DNA of 64,000 nucleotides from a virus: positions 46,389-110,388 of IMG/VR virus record IMGVR_UViG_3300037851_000102; one strand, written 5' to 3'. The number at the start of each line of letters is the position of its first letter. The first letter of the stretch is position 1. Position numbers and translations under genes: made by a program. The notes beneath the pieces are model-generated. The model had not been told where the DNA came from. It was given only the letters and a program-made list of their open reading frames with translations, and searched no databases. Below are positions 18,104 to 48,508 of the stretch, one piece after another.

Positions 18104-18333
18104 TTGTTCAAAGTCTTATTTGCGTGATGTTCTTTTTCGTTGGTGGATGCGCTACAGATGGCAGGAAGCAGGCGGCACTGAGAGATAATCCAGGATGTGT
18201 GTGGGACGATGAGAACGAGGATCTTATCTGCCCGCTGCCTTGGGACTCGACAGGGGAGCTTGAGACCTTAAAGCCCGAAGAGATCGAAGAAATGATAAAG
18301 CCCAAGCCAAAGTCTAAGAAGAAGAAAAAGTGA
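18100..18333 (+). CDS. putative lipoprotein
   Basis: hydrophobic N-terminus ending VGG-C (lipobox-like); GGAGG RBS. Confidence 0.55.
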   Translation: MIVQSLICVMFFFVGGCATDGRKQAALRDNPGCVWDDENEDLICPLPWDSTGELETLKPEEIEEMIKPKPKSKKKKK

Positions 18334-18358
18334 TCCGAAGAGGGCGGCAGGAGACACT

Positions 18359-20005
18359 ATGCCGCTTTTCACAGGTGATGCGTACAAGCTGATTCGTAAA
18401 ATTCCAGATGGCAAAATTCATTGCGTGGTCACAAGTCCGCCTTATTGGGGCTTGAGAAACTACGGCAACGATGCACAGATAGGGCTTGAGCCGAGTCCCG
18501 AATTATTCGTTCGCAAGTTTGTTTTACTCTTTAGGGAGATCAGAAGGACTTTGCGAAAGGATGGAACGATTTGGCTTAATATGGGTGATTCGTACTACGG
18601 ATCGGGCAAAGGATATGGTCACAATTGGGAGAACTCCCCAAAGCAGAAGACCAATGAGGGCTCGCTATTCTCTCAAGACATGAGGCCGCCTTCGCTCAAT
18701 AAGCATCCATATTTAAAATCAAAAGATCTGATTGGCATTCCTTGGAGAATCGCATTCGCGCTTCAGGAAGACGGCTGGTATTTGAGATCTGACATCGTGT
18801 GGGCGAAGACAAACTCAATGCCCGAATCAGTCCTTGATCGACCTACGCGCTCGCATGAATACGTTTTTCTTCTTTCAAAGAGTCCCGATTATTATTTCAA
18901 CCACAAGGCCATTCAAGAGGATTGTGTTTCAAACGAGAGAGACAAGGCTCGAATGAAAAACCCTGAAGAGCGACCGAAGGACAAAAAATATCAAAGCATT
19001 GTGGATCCAAAGCTCGCAGGCACAGGCTCGAAGATCGGCAAGTTTAATTCCGTTGGCAATGGAGAGAAGCGAAACAAGAGAGACGTGTGGTCTCTTGCGA
19101 CTTCGCAATTCAAGGGCTCCGCAGAAATCGTTGAATATCGGGCCGTTCGCCGCGATGAAGCCCAAGATGACACGCTATACATAGCGTCACCAAGTTGTTT
19201 AATCTATGGGGGTCTTTTTGACCTTCTTGCCACGGCTCTATGTGATGAACGTGAAGTTGACGATGTGATCCACAGGCTTGACATTGGTTCTCGTCTCTCT
19301 CAAGAGCCAAGGAGCGGTTTCGTTCATATTGACCAGCTCCGCGCTTGGAGCTTTGGTGGACGAAGTTTGGATTTGATTCTTTCTGAATGTTCTGCTTTTG
19401 CCAAGTTCCGTAACAATGGAAGCCGCAAAACGGGCCTCTTTGTTTCGACCAGTCTTTCATGTAAGCCTTTCTCTGAAAGACTCTCTTGCATTGGGCGCAT
19501 TTTAGAGAAACACGGCTTGTCTGAGCGGAAGCTGAACAATCTCTTGAACAATACTTTGGAATCCGATTTTTACGAAGATCAGATGAAAGAAATTCTTTCG
19601 AGCAATTTTGGCAAACATATTTCAGTAAAGACATCGGGCGTGTTTTACAAAAAAACAATTAGAAACGCAAACCACTTCGCGACGATGCCTGAGAAGCTCG
19701 TAGAGCCGTGTATTCTTGCAGGATGTCCGAGAGGGGGAATAGTGCTTGATCCGTTCGCTGGAGCGGCCACGGTTGGCGTAGTGGCTGAGAGGCTTGGTCG
19801 CAAGTTCATCGGCTTCGAGTTGAATCCAGAGTACGCGAAGATCGCGGAGAAGAGGCTTCAAGATGAGCGAGAAAAAGGGTTATTGGGAGCTAAGAAGAGA
19901 CCTCGAGAAGAGGCTGTTCAAACATCTGGACGAGAAGCTGCCGTTGGAATTGAAGATGCAGTTGAAGGGATCGCAAATCAAAGAGATTTTGATGCTCATC
20001 TCTGA
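18359..20005 (+). CDS. N4-cytosine/N6-adenine DNA methyltransferase (beta class) with ~184-aa in-frame insertion
   Basis: VTSPPYW, WLNMGD, DIVWAK, RNKRDVW...FKG, HFATMPEKLVEPCI, VLDPFAG, FIGFELNPEY. Confidence 0.9.
   Translation: MPLFTGDAYKLIRKIPDGKIHCVVTSPPYWGLRNYGNDAQIGLEPSPELFVRKFVLLFREIRRTLRKDGTIWLNMGDSYYGSGKGYGHNWENSPKQKTNEGSLFSQDMRPPSLNKHPYLKSKDLIGIPWRIAFALQEDGWYLRSDIVWAKTNSMPESVLDRPTRSHEYVFLLSKSPDYYFNHKAIQEDCVSNERDKARMKNPEERPKDKKYQSIVDPKLAGTGSKIGKFNSVGNGEKRNKRDVWSLATSQFKGSAEIVEYRAVRRDEAQDDTLYIASPSCLIYGGLFDLLATALCDEREVDDVIHRLDIGSRLSQEPRSGFVHIDQLRAWSFGGRSLDLILSECSAFAKFRNNGSRKTGLFVSTSLSCKPFSERLSCIGRILEKHGLSERKLNNLLNNTLESDFYEDQMKEILSSNFGKHISVKTSGVFYKKTIRNANHFATMPEKLVEPCILAGCPRGGIVLDPFAGAATVGVVAERLGRKFIGFELNPEYAKIAEKRLQDEREKGLLGAKKRPREEAVQTSGREAAVGIEDAVEGIANQRDFDAHL
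19110..19634 (-). CDS. HNH endonuclease with N-terminal zinc fingers
   Basis: CQNC..F...KYCSRDC and CAQC..F...FCGFHC repeats; ALERDENQCQACG...LHVHHI...NNLVTLCIACHLGLH. Confidence 0.9.
   Translation of the reverse strand: MSLLKYVCQNCSKEFLSSDLRKNRIPKYCSRDCSASAQTSRVSLKCAQCKRVFQRKAYMKDWSKQRGPFCGFHCYGTWQKQNIQKESNPNFVHQSSKRGAGQYERNRSLALERDENQCQACGSHRQLHVHHIEPWQEGQKDPHRLNNLVTLCIACHLGLHRGERPDIQRFLRSP
19118..19669 (-). mobile_element. HNH-endonuclease-carrying insertion inside the methyltransferase (boundaries +/- a few codons)
   Basis: splits the normally contiguous FKG-x-HFAT motif; AT-rich promoter-like end; contains antisense HNH ORF. Confidence 0.75.
19642..19670 (-). promoter_or_regulatory. 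putative sigma70-like promoter for the HNH gene (leaderless)
   Basis: minus strand TTGCGT-N17-TAAAAC, 7 nt before ATG, no SD. Confidence 0.35.
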
Positions 20006-20141
20006 GTATGTTTATCAGGATACTAAACTAAAAGAGAAGGTGTCAGCGGCTCAAGATAAAAACTGGTCGAAGATCAGCGCCGTGCTGGACTCAAGCACAG
20101 AAGAACAGGACGAATTTCTCGCCGCGTTAAACAAATTGTAA
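19863..20141 (+). CDS. hypothetical protein, C-terminal tag FLAALNKL*
   Basis: GAGG upstream; overlaps last 143 nt of the MTase; shared motif. Confidence 0.65.
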
Positions 20142-46198: not shown

Positions 46199-48508
46199 AT
46201 GGCAAGGACGGCAAAGGTATCGTTGACAGCGGATGTGAGAGGCTTCAAGGGCGCAGTTGATGATGCCAGAAAGTCTCTCGCCTCACTAAAAGATATCGAT
46301 GTCGCGCCAGAGTCGGCCAAGAAGCTCAAAGATTTAATTTCAAAAGATTTAATCAAACAAGCTGATACCGTCAAAACTAAGATGGAAGAGATCTCTGTCA
46401 ATCTTGAGAAGATTGCCAGCGGTCAAGAGGCGTTTGATTCTCGAAAAGTCGTCAACTACACAGCGGCTTTAAAAAATCTCAAGCAACAATTGAAAGACAT
46501 CAATACCGAGCAGGCCAATGTTGATAAGGGCGCGTTCGGCGATTTCAAAGATAAATTCATGGGCTCTCAGATTCCTGGAATGGGTGGAGCCAAGGGCGGC
46601 GGCGGTAAAGGCATTATGGGATCGCTTGGCGGTCTCAAGAGCTTGATTGCTCCTGTTCTTGGTGCGCTTGGTGTGCGAGCCATGTTTGGCCGTGCAACGG
46701 GAATTGCAGATGAGAGATTGGCTCAAAGAGCTTTGACGAGAGATGCAGGATACGTTGGCGAAGATTCAAAGTATGGATATTTGCCAAGCGAGCGCCGTCA
46801 ATCAGCGGCCATGTTCGCTTCTCAGGCGGGCGCTATTGATTCAGGAAGATTGACTGGCCTTGTTGATATGGGCGAGCAGATTGAACGCGCCTACGGGGTT
46901 AAGAGAGAGGATTCTGCATCATTTACTGGAGCGGCTCGAAGAGCGGGTGTGAGTGACACTGGTAAGGCTCTTTCAAACTCAATCGGTGCAGCGGTCGCCG
47001 CAGGATTAGAGGGCTCGAAGATCGGCGAATACTTGAATGGTATGCGCGGATTTATGGAAGAGATGTCTCAAGGAATCAATGTTGATAATGATTCTTTGAA
47101 CGGTTTCGCAGCGGCGATGGGCACACTTCCGTTTTTCAAAAACGATCCAAGCAGAATTTTTTCTGCATTGAGATCAATGGATCAAACATTTAAAGGCGGA
47201 GATCGATTCCAGCAAGCGATGGGCACAAGAGCGATTCTTGCGTCAGCACCTGGAGCTTCTGCATCTGCAACAGAATTCCGTCGCAGCATGGGCTTATTTG
47301 GTGAGCTTGATGAAGGCACACTGAAACAGCTTGATGCCGCAGGCGTTGATACTCGCGCAATGAGAGTTGGCGGCGCAGATGTCGTGAGCAATATGTTCAA
47401 AGACATCATGTCTTCAACAGAGGGCATGAGTCCAGATGACCAATTGTACGCATTCCAACAAAGAACAGGATTGGAAGCTGGGCCCGCAGCGGAGATCTTT
47501 GCACAATTGAAATCTGGAAGACCTGATATGAAGGGCATTTCAGACAAGCTCAAAGAAGCTGCGATGAGCCCTGAAGAAAGATTGAATAAAACATTTAAGA
47601 ACGCTGAGGGCTCAATCAAAGATCTCGAGGCAAAAATTGATCGATTGATCGAAGTTATTTCGATGGAACTTGTTCCGCCACTTGTAAAGTTTGTTCAATG
47701 GATCACAAGCAAGATGGGACAGGCTGAAGGACTTTTTGATACCGTTCAAAATACTGGAGAAACTGTCGCGACAGGCGCGATGATGGCTGGCGGATTGTAC
47801 GCTGGATCGAAAGCGATGGGTGCGGCTGGAGCCGTTGCGAAATCTGCTCCTGGCAAAGCCGTTGGCAGAGGATTACAGAAATTTGGCGGCAAAGCGGCTC
47901 AAAAAGTTTTACCAAAAACTTTGGCAAAAGGTGGAGCGAAAGCTGTTGGTCAAGCGATCCCATTTGTGGGCAACGCGATCAACGCTGTGGCCGCTTATCA
48001 AAAATATCAAGAGATTGAAGATAAGGGTGGATGGGACAAGGCAAGCAAGGCTGATAAAGCCGCATTGATGGCCTATGGCGGTGGAACGCTATTCCCTTGG
48101 CTTGGATGGGCTGGTCTTGGTGCAGATGTTTATTCTGACTTCCAAGGCGGCGGAGACGCTGGGCCTCAAGCCCCTGCGGGCGGCGGAGCAATGATGCCGA
48201 CTCCTTCTGACAAGATGGCGACTGGCGGATTCGATATCAACAACATTACAAATCCAACGAGTGCTTTAAGCTCTCCTCTTTCTCCTCAAGTTGGATCTCC
48301 GATGATTCCGCCATCGATTGCGGCACCGAGAGCATCGGCTCCATCACTTCCTTCTGTTTCTCTTGAGGACACAATCACTCGCGAAAACACCATTGCGATT
48401 CAAGGTCTCACGCAGGCGATTATTCGCACAAAGCCAAACGCATACACGCCGAATCCTTCATACGCGAACCCAACAAGGATGAATGAGCGGGCAGTGGGCA
48501 AGAGGTAA
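46199..48508 (+). CDS. tape measure protein
   Basis: Ala/Gly-rich helical protein; position after chaperones. Confidence 0.8.
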   Translation: MARTAKVSLTADVRGFKGAVDDARKSLASLKDIDVAPESAKKLKDLISKDLIKQADTVKTKMEEISVNLEKIASGQEAFDSRKVVNYTAALKNLKQQLKDINTEQANVDKGAFGDFKDKFMGSQIPGMGGAKGGGGKGIMGSLGGLKSLIAPVLGALGVRAMFGRATGIADERLAQRALTRDAGYVGEDSKYGYLPSERRQSAAMFASQAGAIDSGRLTGLVDMGEQIERAYGVKREDSASFTGAARRAGVSDTGKALSNSIGAAVAAGLEGSKIGEYLNGMRGFMEEMSQGINVDNDSLNGFAAAMGTLPFFKNDPSRIFSALRSMDQTFKGGDRFQQAMGTRAILASAPGASASATEFRRSMGLFGELDEGTLKQLDAAGVDTRAMRVGGADVVSNMFKDIMSSTEGMSPDDQLYAFQQRTGLEAGPAAEIFAQLKSGRPDMKGISDKLKEAAMSPEERLNKTFKNAEGSIKDLEAKIDRLIEVISMELVPPLVKFVQWITSKMGQAEGLFDTVQNTGETVATGAMMAGGLYAGSKAMGAAGAVAKSAPGKAVGRGLQKFGGKAAQKVLPKTLAKGGAKAVGQAIPFVGNAINAVAAYQKYQEIEDKGGWDKASKADKAALMAYGGGTLFPWLGWAGLGADVYSDFQGGGDAGPQAPAGGGAMMPTPSDKMATGGFDINNITNPTSALSSPLSPQVGSPMIPPSIAAPRASAPSLPSVSLEDTITRENTIAIQGLTQAIIRTKPNAYTPNPSYANPTRMNERAVGKR

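Follow-up and report, generated by a model that had tools for sequence, protein, structure and literature searches.

A 64,000-nucleotide stretch of viral DNA, covering positions 46,389 to 110,388 of the IMG/VR record IMGVR_UViG_3300037851_000102 and referred to below as the window, includes a phage gene for a DNA methylase, which is split by an insert, and the opposite strand of this insert encodes a zinc-finger HNH endonuclease. The insert is very probably a mobile, homing-type HNH cassette that lies antisense at one conserved site of the methylase, while the host gene is read straight through it. An earlier note, made from the letters of the window, had proposed a homing element that spares its host gene by leaving the frame open and is tolerated as a loop. 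The survey described here supports that account, since the related cassettes are antisense, in frame and almost always free of stops. Two features had been missed: the part of the insert outside the HNH gene corresponds to a promoter, and Cys and His residues encoded in the host frame are under selection in most relatives.

The plus-strand open reading frame (ORF) at 18359-20005 encodes a 548-residue N6_N4 methyltransferase, and a single PF01555 match (164.8 bits) covers residues 20-498, spanning the insert. Motif IV, which has the form (S/D/N)PP(Y/F/W), is located at residues 25-30. In the AlphaFold2 (AF2) model of the whole methylase, the predicted local distance difference test (pLDDT) score of the core is mostly above 90, with 85-97 for residues 440-510, and a Foldseek search with this model returned M.BceJIV, CcrM, M.PvuII and M.RsrI at E values of 1e-12 to 1e-9. 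By profile, motif IV and fold, the host is a phage beta-class N6/N4 DNA methyltransferase. Every large ORF of the 64-kb window lies on the plus strand and a terminase large subunit is encoded just upstream of the methylase; the region is therefore a phage region in which the HNH gene is the lone antisense gene. When phage records were searched by blastn with the methylase gene, all matches were short and confined to methylase motifs, and a search of the ESM Atlas returned methylase clusters alone.

The insert separates F251-K-G253 from N438-H439-FATMP (Table 1). Its boundaries were set by a comparison of the proteins P0001 and P0002, the latter being an insert-free methylase of 363 residues that is 96% identical to the window methylase over residues 1-253 and differs from it at a single residue over 439-502; the residue preceding HFAT is N in the window and A in P0002. 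The split of the methylase motif described in the earlier note was confirmed by this alignment. Over the insert, the methylase frame contains 0 stops, as had been noted before, whereas the other two plus-strand frames contain 9 and 16. The in-frame peptide matched no Pfam family. In the AF2 model, residues 254-438 have a mean pLDDT of about 56, and residues 254-263 at one end of the insert form a strand that pairs with a strand of residues 427-438 at the other.

Table 1. Coordinates of the methylase, the inserted cassette and the features of its minus strand in the window
Feature	Position	Strand	Remarks
Methylase 5' part, M1-G253	18359..19117	+	TSPPYW (motif IV), then RNKRDVW....FKG; PF01555
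Inserted cassette, 552 nt / 184 codons, S254-A437	19118..19669	.	Stop-free on the plus strand in the methylase frame
Methylase 3' part	19670..20005	+	N438, HFATMPEKL, motif I LDPFAGAAT, C-terminal tail, stop; PF01555
HNH endonuclease ORF	19110..19634	-	ATG 19634; alternative upstream in-frame TTG 19658 (182 aa)
Remnant C280-L-I-Y283 of the C-P-x-H knuckle	19196..19207	+	Tyr for His; T-S-G in place of C-x-C
-35-like hexamer TTGCGT	19665..19670	-	Positional homologue of TTGACT; 3/6 positions of TTGACA
-10-like hexamer TAAAAC	19642..19647	-	17 nt past the -35-like hexamer; 7 nt before ATG 19634; no Shine-Dalgarno site, leaderless-like

The nuclease on the minus strand is intact, in agreement with the earlier reading. 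It comprises two CxxC...FCxxxC (FCS-type) zinc fingers followed by an HNH domain, the latter matched by PF01844 over residues 126-169 (E 6.6e-10) with 39.4 bits, where the cut-off is 21.4. The catalytic His and Asn residues and the Cys pairs beside them (H139, N155, H164, H168, C126, C129, C160 and C163) are invariant or nearly so in an alignment of 25 HNH homologues (alignment A2), and of the 37 columns with at least 93% conservation in 100 relatives, the window protein retains every one. The AF2 model has a mean pLDDT of 85; the top Foldseek matches, McrA (6ghc), the GVE2 HNH protein (5h0m) and Cap5, are weak, with E values of 0.05-0.1 and none at or below 0.001. The HNH stop, TGA at 19112-19110, is the complement of TCA within the host TTC-AAG, the F-K codons, so that the HNH gene takes its stop, and the two sense codons before it, from host methylase sequence outside the insert. 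The stop has the same offset in the host Phe codon, using this codon and the next base, in 61 of 75 loci. Variability by HNH codon position is 0.59 at the third position versus 0.36 and 0.34 at the other two, and the third is the highest in each 8-codon block. Consequently, HNH is the primary coding frame and is under ordinary purifying selection, while most of the host-frame peptide is not. On the minus strand at 19079-19095, 15 nt past the HNH stop, there is also a 6-bp hairpin (AGAGAC...GTCTCT) with a T-rich tail, terminator-like by a consensus scan, which falls in the host codons R-D-V-W-S-L.

A first protein search for relatives was suggestive but biased, because read-through ORFs alone can show up in it as long proteins. 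Relatives were therefore ascertained through the HNH protein rather than through the methylase. Scanning viral contigs with the window HNH as a single protein found nothing and alignment A2 was needed; with it, 123 loci were fetched from metagenome, viral and genome collections, of which 103 are unique. All 103 carry the HNH gene antisense between the two methylase halves at the same site, which reads ...RNxRxVW......PF-x-x, insert, x-HFATFP..., and the length of the insert is divisible by 3 in all family loci. The survey suggested by the earlier note, for antisense HNH genes at this site with stop-free inserts in multiples of three, thus gave the result that had been predicted. The methylase frame over the HNH gene is free of stops in 102 of the 103 loci, with one stop seen versus about 265 expected under synonymous shuffling within each HNH gene. 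Over the same loci, the other two antisense frames contain 367 and 1075 stops. The open host frame over the insert is real and lies far beyond chance at the family level.

The codon contexts of the nuclease gene show how the frame is kept open. A host-frame stop arises only where an HNH codon NTT, NCT or NTC precedes a codon starting with A. These codons occur in 0 of 2759 positions before A-starting codons and in 15.9% of positions before other codons. As a result of these forbidden contexts, Phe never precedes Ile, Met, Thr, Asn or Lys in the HNH protein (0 cases seen versus 81.8 expected), and the host frame thereby limits the amino-acid sequence of the nuclease. Judged by these contexts, selection keeps the methylase frame open across the cassette.

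The contrary reading is that the methylase was broken by the nuclease insertion and is dead, its open frame being a coincidence. At the window locus alone, such a coincidence is conceivable: synonymous shuffling of the HNH codons gives a mean of 4.0 stops, the probability of none is roughly 1-2%, and 0 of 300 shuffles were stop-free. The chance of about 1e-4 put forward in the earlier note is too low for this locus, and its statement that the open frame exceeds chance holds for the family. The unusual Ala in motif I also favors a dead methylase. However, the near absence of stops across 103 diverged loci, the empty class of forbidden contexts and the conservation of both methylase halves in one frame all speak against it. 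The only stop-bearing locus, L039 (2501-2977), also has two stops in its HNH gene and no HNH start codon; it looks like a decaying copy, and its close relative L029 is intact. A dead methylase with a fortuitously open frame can, for practical purposes, be dismissed.

It is also conceivable that the insert is removed, either as a group I/II-like intron with an antisense endonuclease gene, as a non-canonical intein, or by ribosomal bypassing; non-canonical splicing and bypassing had both been raised in the earlier note. Like introns and inteins, the insert interrupts a conserved motif, and antisense endonuclease genes are known in nuclear ribosomal DNA (rDNA) group I introns (PMC9548176). Nevertheless, no Rfam match was found at E values up to 1 on either strand of 18300-20100, and the ORF and the promoter together occupy the insert, leaving no space for a ribozyme core. 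The claim that little room is left for a ribozyme has thus held up, while the remainder of the insert, which had gone without an assignment, is a promoter that is degenerate in the window. An intron needs neither a length divisible by 3 nor the avoidance of stops, and a bypassed segment does not need the latter; both are seen across the family. A Hint domain is lacking, the insert begins with W, F, S or R, and the residue after the insert is His and not Cys, Ser or Thr, in line with the earlier remark that this is not a canonical intein. The in-frame peptide folds with low confidence. Removal of the insert is accordingly regarded as very unlikely. Two specific candidates were tried and rejected: an intein, the window insert ending in A-N before the His, and a group I/II intron, on the negative Rfam search and the filling of the cassette by ORF and promoter.

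The distribution of the insert points to mobility. The protein P0003 equals P0009 with 185 additional residues between G249 and Y250, the flanks being 100% identical, and the insert-free P0002 and the window methylase form a further presence/absence pair with flanks that are 96% identical. All 22 loci ascertained through the methylase have an empty site, PFKGAHFAT, with 12 residues from VW to HFAT; these loci came from scans with P0009 and P0002, which yielded distant methylases only and no near-identical empty allele. Across 62 loci (1891 pairs), HNH identity and methylase-flank identity are uncorrelated, with r = 0.03, a value computed from pairwise identities. The loci L063 and L123, for instance, share 75% identity in the HNH protein and 29% in the flanks. 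The uncorrelated identities, together with insert-free alleles that are nearly identical, imply that the cassette is mobile. Contigs of two sequencing runs, one of them the probable source of this DNA, contained no joint across the insert, the other run having scraps only, and are uninformative on expression or on an empty allele.

These observations bear on the possibility, also named in the earlier note, that nuclease and methylase form a co-adapted pair, such as a nested restriction-modification or addiction module. All 103 HNH relatives sit in this methylase family, as such a pair would predict. On the other hand, the similarity of the two proteins is uncorrelated, methylases that are nearly identical occur with and without the cassette, most family methylases have an empty site, and the insertion, as is typical for homing, interrupts a conserved motif of the host itself. 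A co-adapted pair is highly improbable, and the presence/absence and identity pattern fits a homing element rather than a co-inherited nuclease and methylase.

The host frame of the cassette is not uniformly free of constraint. In a synonymous-entropy scan of 73 HNH columns with a conserved residue, synonymous variation was near zero in two, column 136 (His; CAT 94, CAC 2) and column 139 (Asp; GAC 80, GAT 0), and the remaining scanned columns were near the pooled codon entropy. The wobble bases of columns 136 and 139 are the middle bases of a His codon and a Cys codon in the host frame, where they belong to the motif S-P-x-C-P-x-H-G, with the Cys in 98 of 98 sequences and the His in 93 of 98. 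Both CAC cases precede an A-starting codon and so produce a host-frame Cys (C-P-x-C-G, a classical zinc knuckle) and never an Arg. At the other end of the insert, a host-frame C-x-C lies 14 residues ahead of HFAT in 68 loci. On the HNH strand its bases, [A/G]CA...[A/G]CA, are the best conserved of the 5' region and vary at the host-frame wobble only. They are 5' untranslated region in some loci and HNH codons in others, as the offset of the ATG varies, yet they are conserved. The C-P-x-H and C-x-C motifs occur together in 67 of the 75 loci with both junctions. Taken together, these codon patterns show that, in most relatives, selection acts on the Cys and His codons of the host frame.

The four Cys and His residues probably serve as ligands of a zinc clasp where the excursion leaves the methylase, metal binding and fold being proposed from the motifs. 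The host-frame insert peptides of six clasp-bearing relatives matched no Pfam family. Tyr replaces His in only 2 of the 75 loci, the window and L001, both of which are without the C-x-C, and the same degenerate state as in the window is found in L001, P0003, P0007, P0010 and P0012. The clasp was probably lost once, in the window's clade. It is possible to go further and regard the cassette as a two-strand coding element, in which one strand encodes the nuclease and the other a host-frame zinc clasp that ties the ends of a 170-230-residue excursion so that the methylase folds, the clasp having been lost later in the window clade. This extended proposal is tentative and is rated a little short of an even chance. 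If it is true, a homing endonuclease gene would have a third, splicing-free way to spare its host, besides introns and inteins, and coding on two strands would put measurable costs on the nuclease's own sequence.

Selection on host-frame codons in most relatives could also mean that the in-frame peptide is the main product, for example a methylase domain serving as a new DNA-recognition module, and that the antisense HNH gene is a relic. However, elsewhere in the insert the second host-frame codon position is the most variable (0.59), which is the signature of purifying selection in the HNH frame. The HNH protein retains its full set of 37 conserved residues and a confident fold, while the in-frame peptide has no Pfam family and a low pLDDT, and insert-free methylases are the majority. 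The likelihood of a primary in-frame domain is accordingly judged to be very slim, and the mobile nuclease cassette remains the preferred reading.

On the HNH strand of many relatives, a near-consensus sigma-70-type promoter lies within the 35-70 nt that separate the HNH start from the host His codon. The typical layout is GTG-GC-TTGACT-(17 nt)-TGG-TAGAAT-...-AGGAGG-(7-9 nt)-ATG, in which the -35 hexamer of the family, TTGACT, has a fixed offset of +5, counted from the complement of the host His codon. Of 94 loci, 61 have a -10 hexamer in which 5 or more of the 6 positions match, while the number expected is 5.2 when judged from windows inside the HNH gene and 23.7 when judged from shuffles. 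A Shine-Dalgarno-like site is found in 54 loci, and in 14 loci the ATG lies 5-9 nt past the -10 hexamer, in a leaderless-like arrangement. The family promoter TTGACT-17-TGGTAGAAT compares with TTGCGT-17-TAAAAC in the window, where the -10-like hexamer is without the final T of TATAAT; the relatives have TAGAAT, TATAAT or TAAAAT. A promoter scan of the window called none at the family position, and its two minus-strand matches elsewhere, at 20046-20017 and 19404-19376, are not above shuffled expectation. In the spacer of the promoter, the pentamer TCGGT is conserved in relatives at +13 to +17 from the complement of the host His codon on the HNH strand; it includes a host-frame wobble base and is explained neither by the hexamers nor by host-frame residues.

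The proposed mechanism is as follows. The cassette occupies the site between F-x-x and x-HFAT, just ahead of the helix that leads into the S-adenosylmethionine (AdoMet) motif. In relatives, it is a self-contained antisense gene. Its -35 hexamer directly adjoins the host His codon and is followed, after a spacer of 17 nt, by an extended -10 hexamer, an optional Shine-Dalgarno site and an ATG. This gene continues with the two FCS-type zinc fingers and the HNH domain and takes its stop from the host Phe codon and the next base. With no ribozyme or intein involved, the ribosome would translate the host gene through the cassette, and selection purges cassette variants that put a stop in the methylase frame. 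The methylase would then bear about 184 additional residues as a poorly ordered excursion whose two ends are brought together.

Several points weigh against this account. Four of its elements are inferred: expression of both proteins, an active long methylase, cleavage of the empty site by the HNH protein, and zinc binding by the Cys and His residues. The nucleotide boundaries of the insert are uncertain in that they are fixed only to about one codon. The promoter homologue of the window is weak and scan-negative, and the HNH gene of this copy may be poorly expressed. Motif I at 19745-19760 reads F-A-G-A-A, the final Gly of FxGxG being replaced by Ala in both the window and P0002, while at least 90% of 90 homologues have Gly there (residue 470); together with the degenerate Cys/His site, this makes the activity of the window's long methylase less certain than that of typical members. 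Judged by its letters, the nuclease ORF of the window copy is intact, while its promoter and its host-frame clasp are both degenerate.

Homing endonuclease genes are usually considered to persist in essential or useful genes solely through self-splicing introns, through inteins, or by splitting the host gene. The family described here would represent, like the ShiLan insertions discussed below, another route, namely staying translatable in the host frame. The evidence for stop avoidance is unusually clean, given that no forbidden context was seen. The antisense layout adds to this a promoter of its own, a nuclease sequence constrained by the host frame, and two strands that are both shaped by selection in most members. 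Masked by the longer methylase ORF, these nuclease genes are never reported by gene callers. In beta-class methylases the insertion site is a natural permissive point, and the family offers a large natural data set for the study of antisense overlapping genes.

Further cassettes were observed in the course of the survey. A second antisense family lies at another site of the same methylase ORFs (plus strand of L028:2237-2845, L100:3404-3973, L107:3422-3955, L011:1725-2186 and L029:3443-3994); it combines a zinc ribbon with HNH or HNH_3, with NUMOD3 in L028, and the methylase-sense ORF is open over 750-980 aa. In L048:4368-4868 and L062:3237-3716, also on the plus strand, there is an antisense ORF whose N-terminus resembles LAGLIDADG, and the methylase ORFs that enclose it, 1126 and 734 aa long, are free of stops; in L048 the PF00961 match (E 0.0017) is below the cut-off, and L062 has no Pfam match. 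In Synechococcus phage S-EIVl (KJ410740.1, 55062-55535), a distant HNH match of 27% identity lies under a gene annotated as 'putative terminase large subunit' and may be another hidden or fused HNH.

The closest known system is the ShiLan domain, a hidden HNH in DNA methylases of mycobacteriophages (actinobacteriophages) (Gosselin et al. 2023, PMC9957025; Arsenault, Gosselin & Gogarten 2025, PMC11855218); some ten mycobacteriophages are known to carry it. Its HNH gene lies on the same strand as the methylase, in the +3 frame, with a GTG 18 bp into the insert and a TAA in the last four bases; a ribosome-binding site is lacking, and the proposal is that the host transcript is used for leaderless translation (PMC11855218). 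The opposite strand is nowhere mentioned in that paper. The two systems are alike in that a zinc-finger HNH is hidden in a phage methylase, the host frame is stop-free, no intron or intein has been found, close relatives differ in a disjunct manner as to whether they have it, and predictions place the insert in a loop or hairpin off the methylase core. In contrast to ShiLan, the HNH gene of the window family runs antisense, and the relatives provide it with a promoter and a Shine-Dalgarno site of its own. The site in the methylase seems to be distinct as well, Pro or Thr/Ser following the ShiLan site and His following that of the window family. The window family occurs in more than 100 uncultured phage contigs and in no cultured phage record: a tblastn search of the window HNH against 50,697 phage records found no family member (best identity 35%) and no Mycobacterium phage among the top organisms listed. 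A ShiLan-type layout outside actinophages was observed in the cultured Escherichia phage BUCT618 (L124, OM735461.1), in which a 201-aa HNH ORF at 1417-2022, with three FCS-type zinc fingers and 27% identity to the window HNH, lies on the same strand and out of frame inside a methylase coding sequence at 1004-2866 annotated as 'site-specific DNA-methyltransferase'.

A search of a paper library for antisense or hidden HNH insertions in methylases found none besides ShiLan and the rDNA-intron cases. The latter are homing endonuclease genes in nuclear rDNA group I introns at position L2066, which, according to PMC9548176, also run opposite to the strand of the invaded gene and need their own expression signals. 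They differ in lying within self-splicing ribozymes of a non-coding rRNA gene, where there is no host frame to keep open. Inteins with homing endonucleases share with the window family an in-frame, stop-free insertion at a conserved site of the host protein and spread by homing. However, the window insert is without a Hint domain or splice residues, and its nuclease is not part of the host-frame polypeptide. Phage genes are also split by free-standing endonuclease insertions, such as mobA of T4, between genes 39 and 60, and mobE of Aeh1, in nrdA. In these cases, too, a mobile gene of the HNH or GIY-YIG type resides in a phage gene without an intron or intein and host function is kept, but the host becomes two separately translated pieces, whereas the host of the window family stays a single ORF. 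Classed by layout, the window family fits best among the hidden-HNH (ShiLan-type) homing insertions, as a variant on the opposite strand with its own promoter, and what is new relative to the ShiLan literature is the antisense layout, the promoter that relatives carry, and the selection on Cys and His residues in the host frame.

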